64,000 nt of DNA, taken from NCBI GenBank assembly GCA_050952625.1, contig JBMNLH010000001.1:64001-128000 (forward strand), given 5' to 3'. This document shows, piece after piece, positions 26,319-64,000 of the stretch; position 1 is the first letter of the stretch; each line of letters starts with the position of its first letter. The DNA comes from Bacillota bacterium. Lineage in GTDB: Bacteria; Bacillota; Ch66; Ch109. Position numbers and translations under genes: made by a program. The notes under the pieces are model-generated. The model was not told where the DNA came from and made no database searches. It saw nothing but the letters and a program-made list of their open reading frames with translations.

Positions 26319-26716
26319 AAAGCATTTACCTCCTTTTCAATAAATAGTAACTTGCACTTTTCGCGTAACCGAACTTAGTATTCCCCGGTGTTAGAGATAT
26401 ATTCGGTTTAAACCTTTTTTTAATCCAAAATTTATCCGACGTTCCTATATCAGGTTTCATCCCCAGTAATTTGCTTAGCGGTTTAATTGCTCTTTTGTTT
26501 GAATTTTTGTGCTAAACTCATTACGTTATTTGAAGCTCTTATGGGAGTCTTCATAAGTTATTTTGCATAAACGATCCTTAGATTTTTAGATAAAAACAGG
26601 AAATATAATGATACATGTCGAATTTTTATCTCTAGCGAAATAAATATATTATTTCAGGAGATTTTAATGATACAAGAGTAAAAGATTACCCGAAAAAGAG
26701 GTGATTTTACCCCGTT

Positions 26717-49482: not shown

Positions 49483-50584
49483 TTACAGAACCCTGGTCGT
49501 TGCCTGCCGGCTGTACCACCGGCCCAGCCTTTGCAATGCTTCCAGCTGCTCCCGTTGGCCGGCTTTGGTCCGTTTAAGGGCTTTTTGCAAAATGCGGGCA
49601 GAGTGTTCCATGTCCTCACGGTTTACTGGGTACGGGTGGCCGTCTTTCCCGCCGTGGGCAAAGGAGTAGCGCGCCGGGTCCCGGTAGCTGGGCTGAATCC
49701 CATAGGTCAGCTCTGCAACTAAGGCTAAAGCCCGCAGGGTACCGGCCCCGATCCCGGCAATGCCTAACAGGGCTTCAAAACTGCGGGGTCGTTGGTCGTG
49801 AGCAATGGACAAGGCCTTGTTTAAATAGGTCGAAGAGGGAATGGAGTGCCGGGCGGGCAGCGTCAGACTGGGAACTGTTTTCTTGAACAACTCCAATTCC
49901 CGGATCACACTGGCCGGGGGATAGGACACCAAATCAGTCGCGATCTGCCGGATATCTTTGTTTTCTCCGGCGACCAGGTTTAAGGTCCGGGCAGTCGCAT
50001 CACAGCAGATAGCTGAGTGCGGCTCGCACACAAAATCCTCCACCCCTCGGCTGAGCCAGTGGTAACGCCGGGCCTGCCGGTTATCCTCATTCATCCCTTG
50101 TTGAATTACGGTCCAATCGCCGCCCGGAGTAAAGACAAAAAAGTGATGATAGATTTGGTAGCCGTCCTGGACCGCTGAGCTGTCTACCTTAGCTGCCATG
50201 CGGCTGGCATACTGAAAATCCGCCACCTGGTTAGCGAAGCTAAACCGGTCACCTCAGCCGGGCAATCTCGTTTGGCGTGTTACGAGATACTCGGCCTTTG
50301 CCGCCGGCCAGGAAGATCCCCAGGTCAGCCTGCGCCTCTTTCAAACCTTCCTTAAGGGCCCCGCACACTGTCGTCGTTACTCCTGACGAATGCCAGTCAA
50401 AACCCAGCACACAGCCCAGGCTTTGAAACCAGTAAGGATCGGCTAGCCGTTTCAGAACCTCAAACGGACCGTACTCTTCTACGATAACCTCAATAATAGC
50501 TGCTCCCAAAGTCTTCATTTTAGTGAATAGCCAAGCCGGACATTTTCCGCCATGCAGCGGCAGGTTGGCAATCCCGGTTCGCAT
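49483..50584 (-). CDS. DUF763 domain protein, split by an apparent frameshift at about 50253
   Basis: MRTGIANLPLHGG, DPYWFQSLGCVLGFDWHSSGVTT and GGKG, then AKVDSSAVQDGYQIYHH, QQGMN, RRYHW and FAHGGKDGHPYPV in another frame. Confidence 0.88.
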
Positions 50585-50625
50585 ATCTTATCCCGTTCCT
50601 TTCTTTACAGGAAAATATGGTTTCA

Positions 50626-50713
50626 AGTGAACACGTTCAGCTTCGCTGAACATCAAGGCTTCAAATGGAGACTCTACTCCACCTGAAGTTTAAACAAGGT
50701 AACTCCCACTTAC
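50626..50713 (+). repeat. Dispersed palindromic repeat family B, copy 4
   Basis: agtgaacacgttcagcttcgctgaacatcaaggcttcaaatggagactctactccacctgaag..ctcccactta. Confidence 0.85.
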
Positions 50714-50799
50714 TCAAGAACATATGCTTGACGTCACATATACAGTTTTCCGCCGCGCCTCTATGATTTCTTAATTGATTATAACACTATTTAATCCCG

Positions 50800-50813
50800 C
50801 GAACAAATGTTTG
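50800..50813. promoter_or_regulatory. LexA (Cheo/DinR) SOS box
   Basis: CGAACAAATGTTTG matches Firmicute GAAC-N4-GTTY; lies between the divergent DUF763 and WYL genes. Weaker copy AGAACATATGCTTG at 50717. Confidence 0.65.
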
Positions 50814-50862
50814 TTTGAGCAATTGGAAAAATTAAGTTAGAATTTGGAGTAACCAAGCATTA

Positions 50863-52335
50863 GTGAGAACAAAGACAAAACGGTCTTCAAGGCGAGGTAT
50901 CCTATGGCGAGTCAGGATGGAGGTACAGGAAAGAAGATACCGAATCTGGCGGTGGATTTTTCAGCAGCCAGACCACAGTACATCATATAAATGTTTAGCT
51001 GAACATTTTAAAGTCTCCGAGAAAACGGCGAAACTAGATTGTCTTGAACTGGTTAAAGAAGGCTATTTAAAACGTCATTGGGGCGGGGTAACCTTGACAG
51101 AAAAGGGACTTAAGGCCCTGTCCCAGGCAGGGTCGCTGGGACTTGATAGCACTATAAAACGAAAACATCTACGCCAGTTAGTGATCTTACGGGTTTTAGC
51201 CAGGAGACGAGCTAGCCGAAAGAAAAGTGAACGCACCCTAACCCTAAAAGACATTTCGCGGTTAGCTGGGTGGGACATAGATTGCCCTGAAGAAAAAGCT
51301 TATCCCAGTTTAGATAGTTTGAGTAATGATCTGGCCGAGTTAACCTCAATTGGTCTGGTTGAACGAACCGAACAGGGCTGGCAGTTGGGCAGCAGTTTAA
51401 TGCCGCCGCTTTATTTGAACGATGACCAAATGCTTCAGCTGCACCATTACTTAAATACTTTGCCGGCGTTTCTGCCGCTGGATGCGGTCCAGATGACCAG
51501 AATTAAGGATAAATTGCAAACAATCTTGCTGACAAAAGAAAATATGCTCCCAATTGATCAACTTAAACTGGCGACTAGGGAAGTGGTCCATGGTTATTCT
51601 TCACCACCACCGGCTGATGCTAACATTGTCCGATTGGTCGAGGAAGCTGTCGCCAAAGGGTTGGTCCTGGAACTGCTCTATCAAGGCAGAAAGATCAAGA
51701 TTAACCCAATCGGTTTAGTCTATCATTGGCGGCGGGGGTTCTGGTATATCATCTCCACCCCCAAAAAGCGGCAGCGAACCAACTTACAGATACTACGCCT
51801 GGATCGGGTGACTACCGCCTATAAAACTGAACAACAATTTACTCGTTTGCCGGCGCATAAAAGCAGGATATCGAACTTCCTGGCGGAATACTGGGGCGTT
51901 AGCAATGATCGAAGGTTCGAGGTGGAGATTCGTTTTTTTAATACCAAATGGAATGTTAACGCAGTCGAAAATATGTTGGGTGAAATTGCCCAACGGCAGT
52001 ACTGGGCCAAAACCTGCCGGACCGTACCGCAGCCCGATGGCTCGGTTGTCTTAAAGGATACCATTACTGGGCTGTCTGAGTTTACAGCCTGGTTAAGAAC
52101 CTACGGCGATGCAATCGAGATAATCTCCCCGGCTTGGCTGCGGGAAACACAAAAAGAAACCGCCCAAAAAATGCTAGCTGTCTATAAGAAGAAGACCGGC
52201 CAAATAAATAATCAGGCGGAAAAGCTATTTGACCAAGACATGATCAATAAAGCTGATAGGCCTGAGCCAAGAGATACGACTGAGCAGAGGGGAGCCGAAC
52301 AGAGAGACCGGAGCCGAGCAGAGAGATGGAGGTGA
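50863..52335 (+). CDS. WYL domain transcriptional regulator (DeoR-like HTH + HTH + WYL + WCX), PafB-like
   Basis: LAEHFKVSEKTAKLD..L...GYLKRHWGGV (DeoR-like HTH); INPIGLVY...FWYII...LRLDRV (WYL); WLRTYGDAIEIISPAWLR (WCX). Confidence 0.88.
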   Translation: MRTKTKRSSRRGILWRVRMEVQERRYRIWRWIFQQPDHSTSYKCLAEHFKVSEKTAKLDCLELVKEGYLKRHWGGVTLTEKGLKALSQAGSLGLDSTIKRKHLRQLVILRVLARRRASRKKSERTLTLKDISRLAGWDIDCPEEKAYPSLDSLSNDLAELTSIGLVERTEQGWQLGSSLMPPLYLNDDQMLQLHHYLNTLPAFLPLDAVQMTRIKDKLQTILLTKENMLPIDQLKLATREVVHGYSSPPPADANIVRLVEEAVAKGLVLELLYQGRKIKINPIGLVYHWRRGFWYIISTPKKRQRTNLQILRLDRVTTAYKTEQQFTRLPAHKSRISNFLAEYWGVSNDRRFEVEIRFFNTKWNVNAVENMLGEIAQRQYWAKTCRTVPQPDGSVVLKDTITGLSEFTAWLRTYGDAIEIISPAWLRETQKETAQKMLAVYKKKTGQINNQAEKLFDQDMINKADRPEPRDTTEQRGAEQRDRSRAERWR

Positions 52336-52362
52336 GCCGAACGGCACCGAGCAGGAACGGAG

Positions 52363-53511
52363 TTGGCGAGACAGACAGATAAGGCACTAACCAGGTTGAT
52401 TAGTTTGATCAAGATTCTCGAAAAACATCCAAAAGGCTTATCCGCTAATCAATTGGCCGACTTAACCGGATACCCGGCAGCGGTGATCCTGGATGACCTA
52501 AACTGGATCGTGCTGCAATCGGAATTTGCCGCGCACTACACTCTGTACGTTGATGATTTCCCGGAAGAAGAATTAGACATAGAGACAGGAAGCGAAGCTT
52601 TACCTGAAGCCTTACATATTGAAACAGACAGTATCAAGGCAATCAATAACAGTGTAAAACATAGTGAGCTAATACAAGCTGAGACAGATAATAGCGACGA
52701 AGCAGATTATTCAGTGACTGACCCGGATCTTAAGTGGCTGCTTGTGCAAAGGCAGACCTATACCCCCGGTTTAAATCTGTCTCTTGAGGAAGCGGTCCCT
52801 CTGTTATGGGCTTTAATGGAACACCCTCCAGGCCAAGAGCTGGCCTTATTCCAAAAAGAACTCAGGCGGCGAATTTTACCAGATCATATGGCTGAGCCAG
52901 CGGAAAACTGGATTCAGTTTATGGGAACCAAAGCGGGGATGGAAACACCCGACTGCCGTTACCTTGACCAATTGCGGGCGGCAATCTACCGGGAGCAGCT
53001 AATAGAGGTTAGATATTATGCTAAACAGTACCGGCAAACCAAACGGGCCCGCCTGCAACCGCTGGGGCTGGTGCTCTATAACGTAACCGGCACCTGGTAC
53101 CTGGTCGCCCGAGAATACCCCGGGAAAGATATGACGGCCCGGGAAATAATCTTGCATCTGGGGAGGCTTGAATCACTTCGGGTATTAGATCAAACGGCTA
53201 GCTACCCGGCTGATTTTTCGCTAACCGATTTTCTTAGAACTAGATGGGGAATGGATATGTCAGATCCAGTCAAGGTCAAGGCCAGAATCTATCCGCAGGC
53301 CAATGTTCTGGAGAAGATCAACCGGGAAATGATAAAGCGCGGCCTGCCGGCCCCTGCGGAACAGGCTGACGGAACCTATCTATGGGAAGGCGAAGTGCGG
53401 GGAATTAATAATTTTACCCGGTGGATTCTTGGCTTTGGCTCAGCCGTTGAAATCTTAGCCCCGGCCAAGGTCCGGCGCGAAGTTATTTCGATAATCCGCA
53501 ATATATGTTAA
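52363..53511 (+). CDS. WYL domain transcriptional regulator (HTH + WYL + WCX), PafC-like
   Basis: RLISLI...GLSANQLADLTG...ILDDL HTH; LQPLGLV...TWYLVA...LHLGRL; WILGFGSAVEILAPAKVR. Confidence 0.9.
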   Translation: MARQTDKALTRLISLIKILEKHPKGLSANQLADLTGYPAAVILDDLNWIVLQSEFAAHYTLYVDDFPEEELDIETGSEALPEALHIETDSIKAINNSVKHSELIQAETDNSDEADYSVTDPDLKWLLVQRQTYTPGLNLSLEEAVPLLWALMEHPPGQELALFQKELRRRILPDHMAEPAENWIQFMGTKAGMETPDCRYLDQLRAAIYREQLIEVRYYAKQYRQTKRARLQPLGLVLYNVTGTWYLVAREYPGKDMTAREIILHLGRLESLRVLDQTASYPADFSLTDFLRTRWGMDMSDPVKVKARIYPQANVLEKINREMIKRGLPAPAEQADGTYLWEGEVRGINNFTRWILGFGSAVEILAPAKVRREVISIIRNIC

Positions 53512-53583
53512 GTCAACCCCTACTTAATTGAAGTGGGGGTATTTAGTTTGAAAGGCAAACATCGCTTTGTCCTCCCCTTCACC

Positions 53584-53686
53584 GCCTCACGTCTCAAATC
53601 TGACATCTCACTCCTTACTCCTCACTTATCACTTCTTACACCTTATACATCACCCCTTGCCTCGCTCCTCGCACCTCATCCCTCAC
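53584..53686 (-). repeat. Degenerate heptamer tandem repeat (reverse of GTGAGGN)
   Basis: gcctcac gtctcaa atctgac atctcac tccttac tcctcac ttatcac ttcttac accttat acatcac ... acctcat ccctcac. Confidence 0.75.
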
Positions 53687-53700
53687 CCCGGTCGAATTTA

Positions 53701-53733
53701 GGAAACTTTTTTTCGGCTGAGTGAGTTTATAAT
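53701..53733 (+). promoter_or_regulatory. Putative WYL-activator site plus -10 box, copy 1
   Basis: GGAAACTTTTTTTCGGCT, with TATAAT 11 nt after the CGG; identical architecture at 63334-63366. Confidence 0.7.
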
Positions 53734-53794
53734 CAGGTTTAAACTGCAAGCCTGATTATATTAGGCTAGAGATTTTAGCGAGGTGAGGTTTTAA

Positions 53795-53977
53795 TTGGTG
53801 CGTAAAACTTGTCCTTATTGCGGCAAAGACTCTTTTAGTGCCTGCAGTACTGGCGAGTGGATCTGCCCGCATTGCTTTCGGGATATATCTAAGGTAGAAC
53901 CCAAACCAATCAATTACCCGATCCTGCAGGTAGTTCAGAACAATCATTGCGACAAGGACCGCGAAGTAGTTGATTAA
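53795..53977 (+). CDS. Small zinc-ribbon protein (CPYC...CPHC), 60 aa
   Basis: Two CxxC pairs; GAGGTGAGG RBS. Confidence 0.75.
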   Translation: MVRKTCPYCGKDSFSACSTGEWICPHCFRDISKVEPKPINYPILQVVQNNHCDKDREVVD

Positions 53978-54037
53978 AGCAGCGTAATTTGAAAAACAGA
54001 ATTAACCATTAGTTAAAATAATTCGTTGATAGTTGGA

Positions 54038-54062
54038 AGGAAAATGGATGATCGTGTCGAAA
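54038..54062 (+). promoter_or_regulatory. SigH-like promoter upstream of cas10
   Basis: AGGA-N14-GTCGAA, a motif that recurs in seven + strand intergenic regions of the window. Confidence 0.55.
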
Positions 54063-54102
54063 TTTCCATATAAATGCAGAACGGAGACGTTCAAATCCTA
54101 GT

Positions 54103-56517
54103 ATGTTAACCGTTAACCGTCAGGAGGTGAGAAAAATAGATTGGTTGTCTGACAATAATGAAACTAATTTTAAAAACCTATTATACGGGGCCCTTTTTCA
54201 TGATATCGGCAAGTTTTATCAGCGCACCCGTGATAAACAGGCGGAGAAGGAGATTTTCCAGGCTTATCAATGGTATGTAGAGAGCCTGGGTCGGGAATAC
54301 CTCTCCCACGAACAATGGAGTGCCTACTTCATCCGCACTGTTTTAAAAATGGAAGCAGCCGCAACCCTGGCTTTAAAGCACCACCACCCGGAAACTGACC
54401 TGGAATACCTGATCGCAATTGCCGACAAGTTGTCCGCAATGGAACGGGATGAAGAAGGCCCGGCCAGTAACGGTAAAGCCAATGTGGCAGCGGAACCCCT
54501 GTGTTCTGTTTTATCTTCTATCCGGCACATTAGAGATGATAGCGAGCCGGCCATTAGTTTTAAACGCTTGAAATTCGAACCCTTGGTTGATCCTTACCCG
54601 GTTTCCGATAAAAATGCAGCCCTTAGCCCGGGGGACTATCAGGCCTGGTGGGAGTGTTTCGCAACGGAAACCAAGGAGACTGTGAAGCAGCCGGTCGGTG
54701 CTGGCAAACAGTTTCACCGTCTATATCAGTTGCTTTACCAGTACACCCAGACAGTGCCTTCAGCCGCCTATTATTCCAAACCAACTATCTCCTTGTTTGA
54801 CCATTCCCGGACCACTGCAGCGATAGCCACGGCCCTTTACCGGCAGGGGCTTAGCCAGAATGACCTGGAAAGGTTGCACCGTCTTTTGGTGTATGGAGGC
54901 AAGAAGCGGGGAGCGGAAGAGCCGGTCCTGCTCTTGGTTGGCGGCGATATTTCGGGCATTCAGGACTTTGTGTTTGATGTGTCAGCCAAAGGAGCAGCCA
55001 AAGGCCTGCGGGGCCGGTCCTATTATCTGGCCACTCTTGGCGAGGCGATTGCTCAGTTTATCTTGACTCACGAGGGTCTTACCCCCTGTAACATTTTATA
55101 TTCCGGGGGCGGCCATTTCTATTTGATTCTGCCGGTTCGGGCCATGTCACGCTTAGCCGATTACCAAAAACAGATCGACCAGATCCTGTTTGCGGCCCAT
55201 CAAGGGAAGTTGTCGGTCATTCTAACCGGGATTCCCTTGACCCAGACTGATTTTTACCCGGAGAATTTCGGCGAAAAGTGGCAGCAGATCGGTCTAGCAG
55301 CCCAAAAAGCCAAGCAGCAGAAATTCCTCGAATTGATCCGGCAAAACCCGGAACAAGTGCTGGGTCCGAGTTATGAAGGCCAGCAGGTTTGCGTCATTTG
55401 CGGCAGTTCAATGCCAGTGGGAGAAGAAAAATGCTCTTTCTGCGAAAGCTTTGAACAGCTAGGCGATAACCTGGCGCGGGAGCGGACGTATCTTTTGGAG
55501 TACTACTTTAAGCCCCGTCCGGTAGACCAGATGTCCACAGTGGAAGATGTCTGGGCTGGTCTGGGATATCGGCTGGAGTTTTCCAACAAACCAGATGCCC
55601 AGGCCATTGTTTCGGTAATCAATCAACCAGCCTTGGCCGATAAAGCAGTTGATCGTGTGGTTTGGCTGGCGAATACTGCTCCGCATAACCCGGATGGCAG
55701 TCTGCTGACTTTTGAGGAGATCGCGGCGCAAAGTACCGGGGATCACATGTGGGGAGTCCTGCGCGGTGATGTGGATAATCTGGGCAGGGTTTTTCGGGAA
55801 GGCCTGGGCCAGGATCGCTCAATTTCCAAGATTGCCGCCCTCAGTCGAGAGATGTCCTTTTTCTTTAGCTTTATTTTTAATCAGGTCTGTCTGCGGTACC
55901 GGCAGTCGGTTTATGTCATTTATGCCGGGGGAGACGATTTCTTTTTGGTAGGTGCCTGGAGTGATTTGCCAACGATCGCGGCGGAAATCAACCGGGAATT
56001 TCACCGATACAGCTCCGGGAACCCTAACCTCACCCTATCTTGTGCGATCAGTATCGCATCGGGGATGACCTATCCTTTGTTTAAGGTGGCCCATACCGCC
56101 GGGGAACAACTGGACGAACAGGCCAAAACCACCCGAATGGTTAAAGGGGTTCTCCATCATAAAGATAGTGTATGTTTTCTAGGCCAGCCCTTTACCTGGG
56201 GAGAATTGGAGGAAGTCAGACAAGTCAAGAACTTGATCAAAAAAGCAATCCAAAATGAAGGGGTGGCTAAATCGCTCATCTTCTTGATTAATACAGCTTA
56301 CGCTGAGCAGCGGCAATACCAGCAGGGCAGATACCCGATCAATCGAATTTGGCGGCTGGTCTACGCCCTGACCAGACTGGCTGCGCGACATGGGCAAGCC
56401 GCTAACACCCTGAAAGAATTGGAAAGCCGGCTGTTAACCAGCCAGACAATGCTGTATGCCAACAGCCTTTACGCGGCCCGCTGGGCCGAAAAAGAATTGA
56501 GAACAAGGGGGGACTAA
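54103..56517 (+). CDS. cas10: Type III-A CRISPR-associated protein Cas10/Csm1
   Basis: HD domain LFHDIGKF..HH..IADKLSA; SLFDHSR; GDISGIQDF; LRGRSY; GGGHF; CVIC..CSFC; GDVDNLG; YAGGDD palm motif. Confidence 0.97.
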   Translation: MLTVNRQEVRKIDWLSDNNETNFKNLLYGALFHDIGKFYQRTRDKQAEKEIFQAYQWYVESLGREYLSHEQWSAYFIRTVLKMEAAATLALKHHHPETDLEYLIAIADKLSAMERDEEGPASNGKANVAAEPLCSVLSSIRHIRDDSEPAISFKRLKFEPLVDPYPVSDKNAALSPGDYQAWWECFATETKETVKQPVGAGKQFHRLYQLLYQYTQTVPSAAYYSKPTISLFDHSRTTAAIATALYRQGLSQNDLERLHRLLVYGGKKRGAEEPVLLLVGGDISGIQDFVFDVSAKGAAKGLRGRSYYLATLGEAIAQFILTHEGLTPCNILYSGGGHFYLILPVRAMSRLADYQKQIDQILFAAHQGKLSVILTGIPLTQTDFYPENFGEKWQQIGLAAQKAKQQKFLELIRQNPEQVLGPSYEGQQVCVICGSSMPVGEEKCSFCESFEQLGDNLARERTYLLEYYFKPRPVDQMSTVEDVWAGLGYRLEFSNKPDAQAIVSVINQPALADKAVDRVVWLANTAPHNPDGSLLTFEEIAAQSTGDHMWGVLRGDVDNLGRVFREGLGQDRSISKIAALSREMSFFFSFIFNQVCLRYRQSVYVIYAGGDDFFLVGAWSDLPTIAAEINREFHRYSSGNPNLTLSCAISIASGMTYPLFKVAHTAGEQLDEQAKTTRMVKGVLHHKDSVCFLGQPFTWGELEEVRQVKNLIKKAIQNEGVAKSLIFLINTAYAEQRQYQQGRYPINRIWRLVYALTRLAARHGQAANTLKELESRLLTSQTMLYANSLYAARWAEKELRTRGD

Positions 56518-56518
56518 G

Positions 56519-56980
56519 GTGGGCATGAATCGACCACCCATTCCGGGGGGACCCGGGGGCAGACCAAGAAATACAAGCGGAGGTCGAAGTAACCTTGACA
56601 ATTCCGCGGTCCGGGATGCCCTGCAAAACGTCAGGCAACTGCTGGATAAAGACCAGGACCCGTACGGAGAGTTATTAATCCAAACAGCCGAGGCAATGGG
56701 CCGGCACCTAGCCAATAACCGGATGACCACGGCCCAGATCCGGAAACTCTTCTCCGAAGTGCGGAAACTTAATTTTAAAGACGACGGGCCTTACAAGACC
56801 AATATGATGCGGGCCAAACTGGCCTATACTGCCGGCCGTCACCGCGAAGTTGGTGACCTCCAGCAGGTATTAGACAAAGCCTTAATCGAAGTGGGGACCA
56901 GCGAAGAAAAATTTAACCGTTTTGAAAACTTTTTTGAAGCCATTGTGGCCTACCATAAGAAATACGGCGGTAAAGATTAA
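56519..56980 (+). CDS. csm2: Type III-A CRISPR small subunit Csm2
   Basis: MTTAQIRKLFSEV, KLAYTAGR, F..FFEAIVAYHKKYGG. Confidence 0.95.
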   Translation: MGMNRPPIPGGPGGRPRNTSGGRSNLDNSAVRDALQNVRQLLDKDQDPYGELLIQTAEAMGRHLANNRMTTAQIRKLFSEVRKLNFKDDGPYKTNMMRAKLAYTAGRHREVGDLQQVLDKALIEVGTSEEKFNRFENFFEAIVAYHKKYGGKD

Positions 56981-57025
56981 GAACGAAGAATTAGGGGTTA
57001 AGAAGACAGGGAGGAGGCTTAAGCG

Positions 57026-57859
57026 GTGACTGAACTAATAATGGAAGGCAAATTAGTCATGACTGGCCTGATTAAGGCCTGCACCGGACTGCATATCGGC
57101 GGGTCCCCGACTGGTTTAGATATTGGCGGCGTGGATAAGTCTGTCATTAAGGACCCAGGAGGTAAGCCCTATATCCCCGGCAGTTCGCTCAAGGGGAAAA
57201 TGCGCAGTCTGCTGGAAAAAAGTGAAGGACTGGTTACTTCGTCCAGCCTGGTAGTTACTAAAAAAGGCGGGATCCACGACACCATTCGGATGCACATGTG
57301 CAATTCGCCAACTTGTGCTGTTTGCAATATTTTCGGCCGGACCAACGGGCGAAAAAAATTAGCTGACGAATCAGATCTAAATATTGAGAACGGGACCCTG
57401 CCGCGTTTGATAGTGCGGGATGCGTATCTGGTTGAGGACAGTATCCCGCGGGAGATGAAAGAACACTTGGATTTGGAATGGACCGAGGTCAAGTTTGAAA
57501 ACTCAATTGACCGTATTACATCTGCCGCTAACCCCCGACAGACTGAACGGGTGCCGCGGGGAGCAGAGTTTAGTTTTCAAATGGTCTATACGGTTTATAC
57601 TCCGGCAGACCGAGATGACTTCAGCAAGGTGACCAAGGCCTTACGGCTGTTGGAGGATGACTACCTGGGCGGGGCCGGCAGCCGGGGTTACGGACAAATC
57701 CTTTTTCATAACCTGAAGCTATATTGGAATTCAGTCAATGACTATGAAACCGGGAATATTAATCTAGCGACCAAAGAGCCCTGGCTAGCGGCGGATACCC
57801 TCAGCCAGTTGATGGAACAAATGGTTGAGGCCGGGGGCGTGGCCGGGCTTAAAGAATAG
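57026..57859 (+). CDS. csm3: Type III-A CRISPR RAMP Csm3
   Basis: TGLHIGG, IGGVD, PYIPGSSLKGKMRSLLE, EVKFENSIDR..SAANPRQTERVP, YLGGAGSRGYG. Confidence 0.96.
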   Translation: MTELIMEGKLVMTGLIKACTGLHIGGSPTGLDIGGVDKSVIKDPGGKPYIPGSSLKGKMRSLLEKSEGLVTSSSLVVTKKGGIHDTIRMHMCNSPTCAVCNIFGRTNGRKKLADESDLNIENGTLPRLIVRDAYLVEDSIPREMKEHLDLEWTEVKFENSIDRITSAANPRQTERVPRGAEFSFQMVYTVYTPADRDDFSKVTKALRLLEDDYLGGAGSRGYGQILFHNLKLYWNSVNDYETGNINLATKEPWLAADTLSQLMEQMVEAGGVAGLKE

Positions 57860-57871
57860 CGGGGCGATAGC

Positions 57872-58864
57872 ATGAAAGCACACATCGTGAAAATGCATTT
57901 TACAGCGCCCCTGCACTTAGGCAGCAAGGAAGCAATGCTGGAGAACACCCTGCAGCATATCCCATCCGATGTTGTTTTTTCCGCGCTGTGCAACGTGTAT
58001 CGCCACCTCTACGGCAAACAAGCTTTAGAGTCGCTGCTGGCGGAACAAGCACAGTCGGCCGGCTTCCTATTGTCATCAGCCTTTCCTTATTACCGGGATG
58101 CCTATTTTTTGCCCCGGCCTTTAAACTTTGACTTAACCCGCTATGGCTTTGAACCGAAAAAGGCCAAACGGGTGAAATATCTGGAATATAACCTGATGCA
58201 CCGGGTGTTGGCGGGTAAGTTTCAAGCCGCGGATTTGGAGAATTATGTCGCTGAGGCGGTGCAGGGCCTGCTTTTGCCCCGGGAGTATCAGGGTCTGAAA
58301 ATCTGCCGCGAGGTTGAAATACCGCGGGTCGCCCTGGACAGCCTGACTGCTGCGTCAAATATCTATTACTTTAACCAGGTGACCTTTACCCGGGAGGCCG
58401 GTCTTTACTGTCTGGTCCGGTGTGCGCCGGAATTATGGGGCCGGCTCAGGACCTGTTTTCGTGTCTTGGGCGATGAAGGAATCGGCGGGGACCGGACTTC
58501 CGGCAAGGGAGGATTTACCGTCGAATTTCCAGGCGAACTGGCTTTTCCGCAACTGGGTCAGCCGGCCAGCCATGTCTTATTGTCCCTGTATTATCCCAGT
58601 TCTGATGAGGCGGGAAGCCTGGAGGCTGAGTATTCGTTAATCAAACGTTCTGGTTATGTCTACTCTTCAGAGGAAACCGGCCTGAGAAGGAAAAGCGTCA
58701 CCATGCTGGCCGAAGGGGCAGTAGTCTACGCTGATTCTCCTCCAGTTGGGAAGCTCGTGGACCTGACACCGCCCGGGTTTGACAAGCACAAAGTCTGGCG
58801 CAATGGCCTGGCCTTCACGGTGGCGTCAGCCCTGGGGAAAGGAGGAGGGGAAGATGCCGGGTAA
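57872..58864 (+). CDS. csm4: Type III-A CRISPR RAMP Csm4
   Basis: PLHLG, IPSDVVFSAL, SSAFPY, LGDEGIGGDRTSGKG, KRSGYV, MLAEGAV. Confidence 0.95.
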   Translation: MKAHIVKMHFTAPLHLGSKEAMLENTLQHIPSDVVFSALCNVYRHLYGKQALESLLAEQAQSAGFLLSSAFPYYRDAYFLPRPLNFDLTRYGFEPKKAKRVKYLEYNLMHRVLAGKFQAADLENYVAEAVQGLLLPREYQGLKICREVEIPRVALDSLTAASNIYYFNQVTFTREAGLYCLVRCAPELWGRLRTCFRVLGDEGIGGDRTSGKGGFTVEFPGELAFPQLGQPASHVLLSLYYPSSDEAGSLEAEYSLIKRSGYVYSSEETGLRRKSVTMLAEGAVVYADSPPVGKLVDLTPPGFDKHKVWRNGLAFTVASALGKGGGEDAG

Positions 58865-60005
58865 ACTCAAGTATCGCCTGGAGGTCTTGACCCCGGTGCA
58901 TATTGGCAGCGGGCAAAAACTGCTGCCGGCGGATTATATTCTTGATCCCGAGACGCAGGAGGTTATTCGGGTCGACCTAAATGCCCTGTTTAGTGACCGC
59001 TCTTTTCCGGTCGGACGTTTTATCGCGGCGATTAAAGAGCCTGGCTTTAGTCTGCAGCGGAAATTTTATCAGTCAGGGCGCATGTATCCCCTGTACCGGC
59101 TGGCAGCAGCCGATACGCTAAACGAGCTTAACCAGCACATTGGCCGCCCGGCCGGGGCCATTCTCGAACACATAAAGGAGGCCGGCCAGCCCTATCTCCC
59201 GGGGAGTTCGCTGAAAGGAGCCTTGCGTAGTCTGGTCGTTCGCTGCTTGATTGCGCAAAACCCTGATTCTTACGAAGAAAGGCTCAGACAAAACATGCAA
59301 GGAGACAGGAGAAGCCGAAAGGAGTTTTTCTCCACTTCCGCTGAAGAACGCGTAGTCGGCAACCCCAATTTTAGTCTATTTAAGTCCCTGCAGGTTAGCG
59401 ACAGCTCAACGTTAAACCCACAGCAGCTTCAATTGGGCTGTACGCGGGTCCTTTCCTTAACCCGACGTGGGTTCCGCTGGAAGGACCTGGGTCAGAACAC
59501 GAACGTGGATCGTCCAGAGATGGCAACGCCGATTTTTTTTGAAGCCATTCCGGCTGGGACCACCCTAACCGGCACCTTAAAGGTAGATGAGACCTTGCTC
59601 AAAGGAGAAATGGCGCAATTGCTCAGGTACCCGCCGGCCAGCAGAACCGCCCTGCTGGAACTAACGCGGATCTGCCGGGAAGGCAGCCGGGAACTGTTGC
59701 GCAATGAAGAGGAGTTTTTCACGAAAATTTCCTTTGCCCCGGGTGTTCAGGCGGTCAAAGGTATACTGTCGATTGAGCAGGACTGCAACGCTAATCAGAT
59801 GATTATCCCCTTGGCCTGGGGGACTGGTTATCTGGCCAAAGCGATGGGCTGGAAGATTGATCCCGATTTGTTTCGGGAGGTGCGAGACCGATTCAGACTG
59901 GGCCGGCCGGGGTTTGAATTTCCAAAATCTCGAAAGATTATTTTCACGCAGGGTAAACCGTCTGGTTTAATGGGCTGGGTTAAGATCACCCTGGGAGAGG
60001 AATAA
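58854..60005 (+). CDS. csm5: Type III-A CRISPR RAMP Csm5
   Basis: LTPVHIGSG, PYLPGSSLKGALRS, LQVSDS, LAWGTGYLAK, PKSRK, LMGWV. Confidence 0.94.
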   Translation: MPGKLKYRLEVLTPVHIGSGQKLLPADYILDPETQEVIRVDLNALFSDRSFPVGRFIAAIKEPGFSLQRKFYQSGRMYPLYRLAAADTLNELNQHIGRPAGAILEHIKEAGQPYLPGSSLKGALRSLVVRCLIAQNPDSYEERLRQNMQGDRRSRKEFFSTSAEERVVGNPNFSLFKSLQVSDSSTLNPQQLQLGCTRVLSLTRRGFRWKDLGQNTNVDRPEMATPIFFEAIPAGTTLTGTLKVDETLLKGEMAQLLRYPPASRTALLELTRICREGSRELLRNEEEFFTKISFAPGVQAVKGILSIEQDCNANQMIIPLAWGTGYLAKAMGWKIDPDLFREVRDRFRLGRPGFEFPKSRKIIFTQGKPSGLMGWVKITLGEE

Positions 60006-60008
60006 CTG

Positions 60009-60937
60009 ATGCTCAAGGTAATTAAAGTTAATATCGAACTCAAACCCGTCGAACCTATTGAACTGCCAGTTTATAAAGGTTCCACCTTTCGGGGGGATTG
60101 GGCCAGGTACTTAAAGAGATGGTCTGTATCCGGCGGGACCGGCAGTGCCGTCGGTGTTCCATAAGTAATAAATGCAGCTATACCTTCGTCTTTGAAACCG
60201 CAACTTATTATGCCGGGCAGCCTCGGGATTCCGGGGGTGTGCCGCAGCCGTTTGTCTTGGAACCACCTCTGGAGGAAGAAACCAGATACGAAGTTGGCCA
60301 AACAATCAATTTCAGTTTAGTTTTGATGGGGCGGGGGGTAGATTATCTGCCCTACTTCCTGTCCGCCTTTGATTTTATGGGGGAGCGGGGAATCGGACGC
60401 CGGCGGGGTCGGTTTGAGTTGTTCCGCGTGACTGACAGCTATTCGGGAGAGGTAGTCTACGACCGGGAAAGCGGTGAGGTTAACTCGCTGTTGACCCCCC
60501 GAAACCTTTCAGACCTGCTTCTGAAAAGCGAGGCGTGCCAAAGCTGTTGCCTGACTCTGCTCACCCCGCTTCGTTTAAAACAAGGGGGCAGCCTGACCGA
60601 ACAATTCAACTTTGAATTACTCATTCGAGCTATTCTAAGGAGAATAACCTATCTCAACCAGTATTTCGGTGATCAAGAGATAGAACTGGATTATAAACAG
60701 CTTATCGATCAGGCCAAAGAGATCAAAACCAGGGCCAGAAATATAGCCTGGCGGGACTGGGAAAGGTATTCAAGCCGGCAGGATACCCGGATGAAACTGG
60801 GCGGAATAGTTGGCGACATAGAGTTCGCCGGAGAAATTACCCCTTTTTGGCCTTTTCTGTTAATGGGGCAGGAAATCCACATTGGCAAGAATACTACCTT
60901 TGGCCTGGGAAAATATTTAGTGGAACGATCAGGCTGA
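60009..60937 (+). CDS. cas6: CRISPR precrRNA endoribonuclease Cas6; apparent frameshift in G6 run at 60091-60096
   Basis: ATG60009 gives MLKVI...LPVYKGSTFRG; the protein continues in another frame as GLGQVLK..C..C..C....C.Y..FET, PQPFV, RYSSRQ and GQEIHIGKNTTFGLG. Confidence 0.9.
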
Positions 60938-61398
60938 GAGATTGAGAATGTTGAGTAGATGTTGGAAGGATAAGTAATATTTATGTCGAATTCTAATATT
61001 ATCTATTTTATTTTACCAGTTTCATATTCGATAGGTTTTGCCTATCGTAATTGATAGATAAGTAAGTGAGCCTTTTGGCCTGATTTTATAACGTTGCCCT
61101 GCACGAACGAATAGTAATCAAAATTGCAAATTCGACTCCATATAATATAAGCAATTTATATTTATTGAAGTAATGCACTTATTATTATCGCTAACCTGTT
61201 TAAGGCTAAAAATCTCTGGGAGGTTAGCGATAATGAGTAATTCAAAGAAATATGCTGAAATAAAGAGCAAGGAGGCAATAATTTTATTTGGGATGAACTG
61301 GAAAAGAGGTGATTTTCAAGTCTTTGTAGCAGGTTTTTTTGCGGTTAGCGGAATGGCACCTCGCAGCCCAGTATTATCAAGGCCTCCGGACAGCCGCT
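60938..61398 (+). promoter_or_regulatory. CRISPR leader region with SigH-like promoter at 60967-60990
   Basis: AT-rich non-coding stretch between cas6 and the first repeat; AGGA-N14-GTCGAA. Confidence 0.7.
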
Positions 61399-63221
61399 GT
61401 GAGAATGATTGACCCGCTCAGAGGGGATTGCGACGATGTACTTCTCGAAATTATCATCGGCTCGCTTGTGCCAGTGGTGAGAATGATTGACCCGCTCAGA
61501 GGGGATTGCGACGGCATTAACCTCCTCCTCCTCCTCTTCTAATTCAGTTAATCTGTGAGAATGATTGACCCGCTCAGAGGGGATTGCGACCTGTCCCCGT
61601 AAATACGAGGACTTCTCTCAGATACCTGAGGTGAGAATGATTGACCCGCTCAGAGGGGATTGCGACAATTCCTCCTTGTTTTTTTTCGGTTGGTTTAGAG
61701 ATTTCGTGAGAATGATTGACCCGCTCAGAGGGGATTGCGACTGTCACCTTTGTCAGCGTCCCCGCCATCATTGCCGGAGCCGCGTGAGAATGATTGACCC
61801 GCTCAGAGGGGATTGCGACACCAGATGCGGCCAGCATGGATCCACCGCTTGCTAAAACGTGAGAATGATTGACCCGCTCAGAGGGGATTGCGACTTTTCC
61901 TGTAATTCTGGCAATGATAAGATGTATCCAACTGTGAGAATCATTGACCCGATCAGAGGGGATTGCGACAAATAGCAATTAGAATTATTACCATGAAATT
62001 TCGGATCTGGGTGAGAATCATTGACCCGATCAGAGGGGATTGCGACTTACTAGAATAAACACTTCTCCGCGCGATTTTTTTCCTGGTGAGAATCATTGAC
62101 CCGATCAGAGGGGATTGCGACACTGGAGAGGAAGAAATAATGCTCATAATGGCATTGACTTGTGAGAATCATTGACCCGATCAGAGGGGATTGCGACCCA
62201 CTGCCGACCGGCAGCAAGCAGATTTTCATCCCCGTGAGAATCATTGACCCGATCAGAGGGGATTGCGACAAGGATTAAAGAATATAGCTCCTACAACTTT
62301 GTTGTGTGTGAGAATCATTGACCCGATCAGAGGGGATTGCGACGATATTTTTACGATTAGTCCTATCCCCTGCAGCATCGGTGAGAATCATTGACCCGAT
62401 CAGAGGGGATTGCGACGACTGCCCGCCGACCGCACTCGATGGCCGAAACCATTTTGTGAGAATCATTGACCCGATCAGAGGGGATTGCGACTTCTCCTTC
62501 TTTTTTGGTTTCGTTTCGTTTTCGACGGCTGGGTGAGAATCATTGACCCGATCAGAGGGGATTGCGACCAAAAGCAAGCTTACGACGGGATATGTTTTAG
62601 CTAGTGTGAGAATCATTGACCCGATCAGAGGGGATTGCGACAACTGAAGGTTTACGTTTTTCTTGTTATCCCAGCTAATTGTGAGAATCATTGACCCGAT
62701 CAGAGGGGATTGCGACCTATTGTTGCAGCACCACCACAACGCTCACAAATAAAAAGTGAGAATCATTGACCCGATCAGAGGGGATTGCGACCTAATGCCA
62801 TAACTTCTCAACTCATCAATTGATTTCGGTGAGAATCATTGACCCGATCAGAGGGGATTGCGACATATTTTTCCTCCCATGGCTGGAACGGGTCAGAACG
62901 GTGTGAGAATCATTGACCCGATCAGAGGGGATTGCGACACACAAACTCTGGAACCCTCTCCCCGTCCTGCCTCTTTGCGTGAGAATCATTGACCCGATCA
63001 GAGGGGATTGCGACCTTGAAACTCATCGCACATCGCTCACTTTCTCTTATTTGTGAGAATCATTGACCCGATCAGAGGGGATTGCGACTTTTAGAGCAGG
63101 TCGCTTAGCAGGATTTTTCTCCTTTTTTGTGAGAATCATTGACCCGATCAGAGGGGATTGCGACACTCACTGTTCCCTTTTTATGCCCCATGATGATATC
63201 CCAAGGGGAGAATCATTGACC
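61399..63221 (+). CRISPR. CRISPR array: 24 full 36-bp repeats, 1 degenerate terminal repeat, 24 spacers
   Basis: Repeats 1-7 GTGAGAATGATTGACCCGCTCAGAGGGGATTGCGAC; repeats 8-24 GTGAGAATCATTGACCCGATCAGAGGGGATTGCGAC; spacers 36-42 nt. The degenerate repeat at 63206 and the ATTGCGAC 3' end indicate + orientation. Confidence 0.99.
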
Positions 63222-63294
63222 AGATTCGCCGAATTATTTACTTTACCCAAAACAACTAGGTGGGTTAGATGGCAAGCTAATTCAGGTTAATGGC

Positions 63295-63320
63295 AGCCTC
63301 AGTTATTGGGGCTTTTTTTA
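63295..63320 (+). terminator. Intrinsic terminator after CRISPR array
   Basis: agcctcagttattggggct hairpin followed by a T run. Confidence 0.65.
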
Positions 63321-63333
63321 TTGCCCCCTATCT

Positions 63334-63366
63334 GGAAACTTTTTTTCGGCTAGTTGAATTTATAAT
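63334..63366 (+). promoter_or_regulatory. Putative WYL-activator site plus -10 box, copy 2
   Basis: GGAAACTTTTTTTCGGCT, with TATAAT 11 nt after the CGG; same as 53701-53733. Confidence 0.7.
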
Positions 63367-63423
63367 TTATTAGGGTGATCGGTTAACTTGTCATTGCAAC
63401 TTCTATCAAGGAGGTTAAAAGAA

Positions 63424-64000
63424 ATGGGTTTTCTAAAGGATTTAGGCAGTCTCACCGGCAGCATTGCAGGGGTGGTTTTGTCTACTCCAGTGACTTTGGC
63501 TGGTGGTTTTTTTGATAGTGATACCTTAAAGGAGGCGGCTCGCGGGATACACTATGTTACCGCCAGTACTGGTTCCTTAATCGGTCAAACCGTCAGTGGC
63601 GGTCTGGATGTGGTGGAAGGAGTTTTAACTAGGAATGACAGGATAAGTCAGCAGGGTCTTGATGAGGTTGGTGATTCTTTTAAAACTGTTATCAATGGGG
63701 TAATTGGTGGTACCGCTAGTCTCTTGGATAATAGTGGTAAAGTAATTACTGGGGTATTTGAGGGTGATACGGCCACCGCAATGCAAGGAGCTAAAAATCT
63801 TGCTAAATTTGGCATAATTACGGCCATCGGAATTGGGCTGGCTGATGCGATTGGGATTGTTGATGTAAATGGGAATGAGACGGTAGCCCACGCTCAAGTA
63901 CCTAGTAGTTTTAGTTATGATCAAGATGATGCTGTTTTGGATTATTCAGATATTGGTGAACCGCATGGGCTAGTACCGGACGTTCCGGTTGATGACATTC
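63424..64000 (+). CDS. Gly-rich amphipathic hypothetical protein (3' end outside window)
   Basis: AAGGAGG RBS, ATG63424, open to the window end: MGFLKDLGSLTGSIAGVVLSTPVTLAGGFFDSDTLKEAARG...GAKNLAKFGIITAIGIGLADAIG..., then an acidic linker. Not in the ORF track. Confidence 0.8.
   Translation, partial: MGFLKDLGSLTGSIAGVVLSTPVTLAGGFFDSDTLKEAARGIHYVTASTGSLIGQTVSGGLDVVEGVLTRNDRISQQGLDEVGDSFKTVINGVIGGTASLLDNSGKVITGVFEGDTATAMQGAKNLAKFGIITAIGIGLADAIGIVDVNGNETVAHAQVPSSFSYDQDDAVLDYSDIGEPHGLVPDVPVDDI

Follow-up and report, generated by a model that had tools for sequence, protein, structure and literature searches.

Here, we explored the regulatory layout of a CRISPR-Cas locus in a 64,000-nucleotide (nt) stretch of DNA (hereafter the window; contig JBMNLH010000001.1, positions 64,001 to 128,000) from a spore-former that belongs to the Bacillota sensu lato, the genome of which (the source genome, G000; coordinates written C1:position) comprises 2,909,876 nt in 9 contigs. 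Two adjacent genes, WYL1 and WYL2, encoding regulators with helix-turn-helix (HTH), WYL and WCX domains, precede a type III-A effector operon, and an 18-nt sequence, the core of what we call motif A, recurs exactly at two promoter-like elements of the same locus, both devoid of a -35 element. Our analysis points, tentatively, to a heteromeric WYL factor dedicated to this CRISPR-Cas supercluster, with the 18-mer as candidate operator at the two -35-less promoters and with an independent input of the sigma-H/Spo0A type; we favour this reading while rating it a little short of an even chance.

The WYL pair and the repeated element

Both WYL proteins display the succession of an N-terminal HTH, WYL and WCX that characterizes class A of the HTH-WYL-WCX proteins (PMC6789036). 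WYL1 most likely starts at ATG 50917, chosen by likeness to the corresponding open reading frame (ORF) of a sister species, in a frame that is open from GTG 50863. In Pfam, it matches HTH_DeoR above the cut-off (E 3.5e-7 to 3.9e-7) and WCX (3.8e-11), with a second, ordinary HTH weakly seen (HTH_IclR, E 0.068); its WYL domain was missed by Pfam but found by the PADLOC model of Cas-associated WYL proteins, PDLC01652 (7e-22), which WYL2 matches as well (2e-26). Six WYL1 orthologues align over their full length, including the extra HTH, in which T37, D41, L45 and G49 are invariant, and Pfam detects WCX in all six and WYL and HTH_DeoR in five of six each. WYL2 matches WYL (3.7e-8) and WCX (5.6e-13), its N-terminal piece falling just below the cut-off of 22 bits for HTH_IclR (2e-4, 21.5 bits). 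Pfam and PADLOC are thus in agreement with the preliminary description of this DNA, made from the sequence alone, which had recognized two tandem HTH-WYL-WCX genes, the first with an additional DeoR-like HTH. The PDLC01652 matches together with the adjacency of cas genes, cas10 beginning 592 nt past the WYL2 stop, place the pair among the CRISPR-associated WYL proteins. Close relatives of WYL2 are scarce: a word search returned 1 match, at 34% identity, and a single-protein metagenome scan none. Among the locus proteins scanned, the pair are the only ones with a clear HTH DNA-binding domain, the sole other match to an HTH-named family being that of the first csx1 product to cas_HTH/Csa3, below the cut-off.

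It is very likely, judging from natural fusions and a predicted complex, that WYL1 and WYL2 form a heterodimer and act as one heteromeric regulator, as the preliminary description had proposed. The two genes are separated by 27 nt, and in the sister species (G001, same genus; a metagenome-assembled genome (MAG) labelled Syntrophomonadaceae), the DNA of which is 95% identical to the window, they are fused into a single ORF of 859 amino acids (aa). This fusion is not an assembly slip, because the same linker, DGAGQRNGVE, is encoded immediately ahead of the position equivalent to 52372 in a contig (X17) that comes from an unrelated RNA library. A fused form of 706 aa adjoins cas10 in G088, one of the 401 genomes of the phylum sample in which WYL pairs, cas10 linkage and motif patterns were scanned. 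The model of the WYL1/WYL2 complex scored 0.69, against 0.00 for the best control, and passed a mark that is reached by 58 of 80 solved complexes and by 2 of 110 mismatched pairs; its runs share at least 55% of contacts, with a partner pLDDT (predicted local distance difference test) of at least 68. The predicted interface is mainly WCX to WCX, the surest contacts being those of WYL1 391-423 with WYL2 349-382, although this pass may stem from likeness, because the solved WYL dimers (PafBC, DriD) are alike. The short gap, the fusions and, at the level of a model, the complex agree with what characterizes PafBC, namely, adjacent or fused paralogous WYL genes, the products of which form a heterodimer.

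Motif A has the form GGAAAC-T7-CGGCT-N7-TTTATAAT. Its 18-mer, GGAAACTTTTTTTCGGCT, is exact at 53701-53718 and 63334-63351 on the forward strand (copies A1 and A2) and emerged from an unbiased search as the longest exact block common to separate intergenic regions of the locus. When as many as 3 mismatches are tolerated, the 18-mer still matches the window at these 2 sites only, whereas shuffled sequences gave a mean of 0.16 matches, 2 of 100 shuffles reaching 2. Both copies have TATAAT (53728-53733 and 63361-63366) 11 nt after the CGG and 21 nt from the GGAAAC, and a consensus scan called neither of them a -35/-10 promoter, so that the identity, the spacing and the lack of a -35 initially described are all borne out. 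Furthermore, both lie between genes on the coding strand, each immediately past a terminator-like hairpin and 58-65 nt ahead of a start codon. When A1 and A2 are aligned, likeness is confined to a 33-nt block, 29 of 33 positions identical, that consists of the 18-mer, three unlike bases, TGA, one unlike base and TTTATAAT; the flanks are unalignable. Two blocks of identity at a fixed spacing, set in unrelated flanks, fit a constrained cis-element better than a recent duplication. Across the source genome, the exact element occurs at A1 and A2 only, as would befit a dedicated site, but the looser form GGAAAC-N7-CGG-N11-TATAAT has one further match, with a different spacer, at C1:400241. The 16-mer core, allowing 2 mismatches, gives 9 matches against 2 for the reversed control, exact again at A1 and A2 only.

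Several sequences akin to motif A or adjoining it can be recorded here. A copy with 1 mismatch at C1:196006 (L010 2006), GGGAAC-T7-CGG followed by TGTCGAATAAA, lies ahead of a GHL10-type gene, the product of which is a secreted GHL10/Cu_amine_oxidN1 protein. This copy could represent a sigma-H/Spo0A site or else a third relative, if a weaker one, of motif A; being identical in the sister species over 251 nt, it gives no footprint. At A1, a 9-nt inverted repeat, ATAATCAGG...CCTGATTAT, with a 13-nt loop (53729-53759) overlaps the -10 and the likely start, and is absent at A2. The genome has 10 windows of C-rich, G-poor composition, among them the tract just upstream of A1. The contig of the sister species stops just before this tract, which may be hard to assemble or, at a guess, could be a Rho-loading site.

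The features of the locus, all on the forward strand, are the following.

50802-50815: palindrome AACAAA-TG-TTTGTT, read from the sequence, overlapping the -35 of the WYL operon; a possible operator
50802-50843: likely sigma-A promoter of the WYL operon (promoter scan), TTGAGC-N17-TAGAAT at 50815-50843
50917-52335: WYL1, 472 aa (Pfam, PADLOC, six-orthologue alignment)
52363-53511: WYL2, 382 aa (Pfam, PADLOC, alignment)
53516-53540: terminator-like hairpin after WYL2 (terminator scan)
53555-53690: C-rich, G-poor tract of 136 nt (C 46%, G 7%) between the WYL2 terminator and A1 (composition)
53701-53733: motif A1, promoter-like, without -35, 65 nt ahead of the zinc-ribbon ORF
53798-53977: gene for a zinc-ribbon microprotein of 59 aa (CxxC...CxxC read in the sequence), from GTG 53798 or TTG 53795
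54103-60937: type III-A effector operon (this and its genes by Pfam)
54103-56517: cas10 (HD and palm)
56519-56980: csm2
57026-57859: csm3
57872-58864: csm4
58779-60005: csm5 ORF
60098-60937: cas6
61399-63235: CRISPR array with 36-nt repeats, the last one degenerate (read from the sequence)
63295-63313: terminator-like hairpin after the array (terminator scan)
63334-63366: motif A2, the same 18-mer, N7 and TTTATAAT, promoter-like, without -35, 58 nt ahead of the HNH ORF
63424 to window-equivalent 64284: gene for a 286-aa protein, Gly-rich in its N-terminal part and with an HNH nuclease domain at the C-terminal end (Pfam)

The gene order downstream of A1, a zinc-ribbon microprotein followed by cas10-csm2-5-cas6, is confirmed, and the system is of type III-A by its cas10 with HD and palm domains, csm2, the csm3-5 RAMPs, cas6 and the adjoining array. 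A2 stands, as had been noted, between the array terminator and a Gly-rich ORF, the C-terminal end of which proved to be an HNH domain. Past the window end follow csx1 (CARF-HEPN-CARF), a second csx1 (CARF-HEPN) and a cmr1-6/cas10 operon of type III-B. Contrary to the preliminary description, the two motif copies do not bracket the CRISPR locus; A2 instead heads a module of the HNH gene, two csx1 genes and cmr. The zinc-ribbon protein retrieved only itself in a word search, 557 small zinc-ribbon representatives without names or context in a profile search, and unnamed clusters only in the Atlas.

Other observations concern the surroundings. An inverted-repeat element, CGCTAACC...GGTTAGCGATA, in the array leader (61189-61232) recurs past cmr at about 14881-14925 of L009, a stretch that runs beyond the window end (L009 295-313 corresponds to window 63295-63313), which is suggestive of another array sharing this leader. 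A dispersed element of about 88-103 nt at 50618-50720, between the DUF763 gene and WYL1, contains a hairpin and looks like a repetitive extragenic palindromic or miniature inverted-repeat transposable element, with 125 BLAST matches in the source genome and more than 40 in the sister species. On the reverse strand, adjoining ORFs of 111 and 247 aa (49483-50584) match the N-terminal and C-terminal parts of DUF763, apparently a split or frameshifted gene. An Rfam scan of 50000-64000 returned one sub-threshold snoRNA match only, which was set aside as chance.

WYL pairs and the motif in other genomes

WYL matches at 1e-8 were found in 116 of the 401 phylum genomes and include, counted by eye among the matches listed, at least 29 tandem or fused pairs. 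At least 8 of the 29 lie within 15 kb of a PF22335 cas10 match (G000, G284, G020, G057, G098, G388, G088:C61 and G099), where well under one would be expected by chance; among the matches listed, 17 have no nearby cas10 and 4 are on contigs too short to judge. Thus, tandem WYL pairs are strongly linked to cas10 in this phylum, although the eight cases are not independent, because G057 and G098 belong to one genus. Alignment-based scans added a Desulfoscipio MAG (L112) with a WYL pair, a zinc-ribbon gene and cmr, a degraded WYL pair in Desulfotruncus arcticus, and two metagenome contigs with csx1, a WYL pair, an array and type I genes. Homologues of the zinc-ribbon microgene, with 13 invariant columns, stand between the WYL pair and the type III operon in G284 and L112, and because these are two distant genomes, the order of pair, zinc ribbon and type III genes is old, unlike the presence of the HNH gene.

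The sister species lacks A2 and the HNH gene except for the last 15 nt of the latter, the junction lying at a TTTTAT microhomology (contig C198/L066 compared with L009 1215-1440), past which two different CARF genes follow, with no cmr operon at that place. Its WYL contig ends at the WYL2 stop, and the csm fragment and array end are on other short contigs, so that the comparison covers the A2 side and not the A1 region. The earlier suggestion that a CRISPR module had inserted into a regulon of WYL, zinc ribbon and toxin is unlikely, given that the trio of pair, zinc ribbon and type III system is found in two distant genomes and that the HNH gene, lost in the sister species, is the part that can be dispensed with.

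A motif resembling motif A accompanies the WYL pair in another genus, g56, represented by G098, G057 and G137 (a third species). In G098, the longest exact block common to intergenic regions, again found by an unbiased search, is TTTTTGGAAAAAATTTTT, the only exact copies of which precede cas10 and the operon containing the WYL pair. The pattern GGAAAM-NN-T5-YBG-N10-12-TAnnnT has 3 matches each in G000, G057 and G098, and all 3 in G098 precede CRISPR-Cas genes. The third of these, a site that was not used in writing the pattern, lies on another contig (L130 2406-2437, G098:C27) in the 53-nt gap between type I-B cas6 and cas8b, ahead of a cas8b-cas7-cas5 operon, and one WYL regulator may serve both type I and type III in g56. 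By our own count, the distance from the hexamer to the -10-like TAnnnT is 21 or 22 nt at 7 of 7 sites.

A second promoter class in the locus

Four sites of the locus share the form AGGA (once AGGG)-N17-GAAT/GAAA, which agrees with the form AGGA-N17-18-GAAT given for SigH promoters in passages of PMC12456013; TGTCGAA, present in each of the four, is described in part of PMC3485338 as the Spo0A-box core. These elements, read from the sequence on the forward strand, are as follows.

54038-54065: sigma-H-type promoter before cas10, AGGA-N17-GAAA, with TGTCGAA at 54055-54061
60967-60994: sigma-H-type promoter on the array-leader side, AGGA-N17-GAAT, with TGTCGAA at 60984-60990
L009 1378-1405: sigma-H-type promoter before the first csx1
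L009 4880-4905: sigma-H-type promoter before cmr1
L009 4775-4781: a fifth, lone TGTCGAA before cmr1

By their sequences, then, cas10, the array side, csx1 and cmr each appear to have a sigma-H-type promoter of their own. In the source genome, AGGAWW...GAATWW has 64 matches at spacer 17, 30 at spacer 18 and 15-23 at other spacers, that is, 94 matches against 16 for the reversed control; the same AGGA-N17 form precedes spo0A, and sigH (374 bits) and spo0A are both present. TGTCGAA occurs 6 times on the forward strand and never on the reverse strand of C1:114000-132200 (expected 0.94, P 4e-4), 5 of the 6 being intergenic. However, genome-wide, TG stands ahead of TCGAA in 22 of 54 AGGA-N15-16-TCGAAW sites (counted by eye), so that TGTCGAAT may be just the local sigma-H -10. 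Another member of the set, AGGA-N18-GAAT with TGTCGAA, lies before an fdhD-like gene at 26596-26625.

Motif A itself belongs to a different class, because its spacer, were it a sigma-H promoter, would be 19, a length that does not rise above background (18 matches against 64 at spacer 17), and one of its copies reads GAGT. Sigma-54, ECF, SigW-type, sigma-I, CodY, ComK and cre readings of motif A were likewise rejected, the spacing being wrong (judged by eye against consensus sequences). On the forward strand, no terminator was found between the zinc-ribbon ORF and cas10, nor between the HNH gene and csx1, so that transcripts begun at A1 and A2 could read through into the effector operons.

Public sequencing runs offer a limited view of transcription. 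Parts of the stretch occur in 20 runs, 4 of which are RNA libraries stored as contigs; such libraries can contain DNA, and contigs do not reveal where transcription starts. Contigs of these libraries lie on csm genes in 4 of 4 runs (3 studies) and on part of WYL2 in 2 runs, and one contig of 163 nt spans 53768-53929, in the zinc-ribbon gene. Outside the array, the contigs leave 53396-53757 uncovered and do not join the zinc-ribbon ORF to cas10, which is uninformative either way because contigs cannot show starts.

Proposed mechanism, alternatives and known WYL regulators

On the reading that we favour, WYL1 and WYL2 would constitute one heteromeric, ligand-responsive transcription factor for the neighbouring supercluster. 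Its most likely operator would be GGAAAC-T7-CGGCT, 21 nt (from GGAAAC) before a perfect TATAAT at the two promoters without a -35, where the bound pair would recruit or adapt the housekeeping RNA polymerase in the manner of PafBC and DriD. We infer that the pair would act as an activator: A1 would drive the zinc-ribbon gene, probably reading on into csm, and A2 the HNH gene, probably reading on into csx1 and cmr. The independent sigma-H/Spo0A-type promoters of csm, the array side, csx1 and cmr would give the locus developmental inputs in addition to signal-dependent ones.

Several results weigh against this reading. The sequences of motif A are low in complexity, with runs of A and T. Far away from the CRISPR locus, the source genome contains a third WYL-WCX gene that stands alone (C1:1670779-1671291, reverse strand, in a 335-aa frame). 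The A2 promoter is dispensable, because the sister species lost it along with the HNH gene. Furthermore, most characterised defence-linked WYL regulators, CapW and Sll7009 among them in the passages of the literature cited here, are repressors, not activators. The cross-genome pattern was written from G000, G098 and G057 sites, which leaves the third g56 site and the background rate as the sole independent evidence; it has 34 matches in 27 of the 401 genomes, no more than the reversed control (about 48, by our own count). A like motif occurs at the homologous WYL loci of G098 and G057, and a weak one at that of L112 (11 of 18 positions plus TTTATAAT), but no other tandem-pair locus matched the pattern in the 401-genome scan, and the motif was not seen at the CRISPR-linked pairs of G284, G020, G388, G088, G099 and L116/L117. 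In G284, the zinc-ribbon gene has an ordinary TTGACA-type promoter and, conversely, G137 retains the motif before a CARF-like gene, with no WYL1 homologue found in its 94%-complete assembly.

The last three observations, the absence of the motif from most other CRISPR-linked pairs, the G284 promoter and the persistence of the motif in G137, also speak for a somewhat unlikely alternative, in which A1 and A2 are real promoters that are not bound by the WYL pair. They would be used by the housekeeping polymerase alone, given a perfect -10 with A/T-rich sequence upstream, or be controlled by an unlinked factor, and the 18-mer would be a promoter cassette that was copied once. Indeed, a perfect TATAAT after TTT can function without a -35. 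This alternative is, however, hard to reconcile with two blocks of identity at exact spacing in unrelated flanks, with the uniqueness of the motif to this locus in 2.9 Mb and with a like element at all three CRISPR-Cas promoters in G098, and the spacing does not suit the sigma-H type.

We consider it unlikely that the pair is instead a repressor in the manner of CapW, BrxR-type proteins or Sll7009, released by a nucleic-acid ligand and acting at one of three sites, the palindrome of its own promoter (50802-50815), the A1 inverted repeat (53729-53759) or the 18-mer. WYL repressors that are linked to defence and sense single-stranded DNA (ssDNA) are described in part of PMC11662680, and Sll7009 figures in PMC6789036 as a WYL repressor linked to a defence locus. 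The palindrome does overlap the -35 of the WYL operon promoter, the inverted repeat spans the -10 of A1, and the G098 motif is a perfect palindrome, GGAAAAA-A-TTTTTCC, one copy of which heads the WYL operon, where it would serve autoregulation. Yet the absence of a -35 from both A1 and A2 suggests that activation is required, the 18-mer of the source genome is not palindromic, the inverted repeat of A1 has no counterpart at A2, and the 50802 palindrome recurs at neither. Finally, it is highly improbable that the direct 18-nt repeats, which do flank a complete 9.6-kb module (zinc-ribbon gene, csm, cas6 and array), are an att-like recombination or insertion scar devoid of a regulatory role, as the second block, TGA-N-TTTATAAT, is equidistant in both copies and both are in promoter position, the arrangement of WYL pair, zinc ribbon and type III genes is an old one common to G284 and L112, and a Pfam scan of locus genes revealed neither an integrase nor a transposase.

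WYL proteins associated with CRISPR reportedly figure in work by Makarova from 2014. The group includes the 'HTH-WYL' and 'CARF+WYL' clusters of Shah 2018, Sll7009 and the proteins captured by PDLC01652. That WYL proteins occur beside type III loci is already known, HTH-WYL being listed as a type III accessory family in part of PMC6546367, whereas the latest type III survey (Hoikkala 2024, PMC11229360) left WYL regulators, in its own words, 'for a future study'. The literature consulted on these proteins mentions neither an obligate pair, tandem or fused, with a long first subunit, nor a target motif, nor a zinc-ribbon companion gene. Our searches, supplementary gene lists aside, likewise did not turn up such a combination, the candidate operator or the predicted dual control.

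Among individual regulators, the preliminary description had called the pair PafBC-like. PafBC, a DNA-damage regulator of mycobacteria and other actinobacteria that works by 'sigma adaptation', is activated by ssDNA at its WYL domains. According to passages of PMC8635444, PafBC promoters lack a -35 and have the form tGTCgg-N10-tAnnnT and, as stated in PMC6789036, PafBC is split in most actinobacteria and fused in some. The pair shares with PafBC the two adjoining HTH-WYL-WCX genes, fused in some species, with a predicted WCX-WCX interface. Its candidate target promoters resemble those of PafBC in combining a canonical -10 and the lack of a -35 with a fixed-distance upstream element, the terminal TCGG of which lies about 10-11 nt ahead of the -10. 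By contrast, TTTCGG-N11-TATAAT differs from the PafBC form by one nucleotide in its spacing and lacks the G of GTC, the triplet read by PafB being TTC here; the candidate element is longer (about -39 to -24), WYL1 bears an additional HTH at its N-terminus, cas genes rather than pup-proteasome genes adjoin the pair, and the host is a spore-former of the Bacillota sensu lato, not an actinobacterium. Specific kinship in sequence is lacking, too, with E 0.07 to 6sj9, in the HTH only, and E 0.099 to HTH_PafC (12.9 bits against a cut-off of 32), so that likeness to PafBC does not extend to the sequence, and the two are better described as CRISPR-associated WYL proteins. The closest solved relatives are instead DriD-like chains (8tp8, 9pfq, 7tzv), with E of about 1e-8 for WYL2 and 1e-5 for WYL1. 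Like the candidate sites here, those of DriD keep a constant distance to the -10 and are accompanied by poor -35 elements, as described in part of PMC13004042. DriD of Caulobacter is, however, a homodimer that is activated by ssDNA and binds a near-symmetric site in a DNA-damage regulon, whereas here two unlike subunits, a non-palindromic 18-mer and a CRISPR-Cas neighbourhood are found. The CapW/BrxR-type regulators, which sense ssDNA according to passages of PMC11662680, are likewise HTH-WYL-WCX proteins linked to defence and encoded beside their system, but they are homodimeric repressors with palindromic operators in their own promoter, unlike the candidate sites at -35-less promoters of downstream genes that we describe.

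In the broadest extension of our proposal, which we regard as quite unlikely to hold as a whole, the pair would represent a distinct, CRISPR-dedicated family of WYL regulators in spore-forming Bacillota that are heteromeric, in some cases fused, and bear an additional HTH at the N-terminus. Such regulators would sense a product of type III interference or infection (cyclic oligoadenylate, or fragments of single-stranded RNA or DNA) and switch on -35-less promoters, so boosting csm/cmr, csx1 and the HNH nuclease, and type I-B elsewhere, in a feed-forward manner, atop a Spo0A/sigma-H control that ties immunity to sporulation entry.

If the pair activates both promoters, it would be the first WYL activator in the style of PafBC or DriD to be assigned to CRISPR-Cas and, if this is true, it comes with a defined candidate operator and a conserved zinc-ribbon companion gene. 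The fused and split forms of the regulator and the sister species that lacks one of the targets amount to a natural experiment. The sigma-H/Spo0A-type promoters, in turn, predict from their sequences a coupling of type III immunity to the transition state or the onset of sporulation, a connection on which our searches found no paper, and they would thereby link type III immunity to the sporulation decision.

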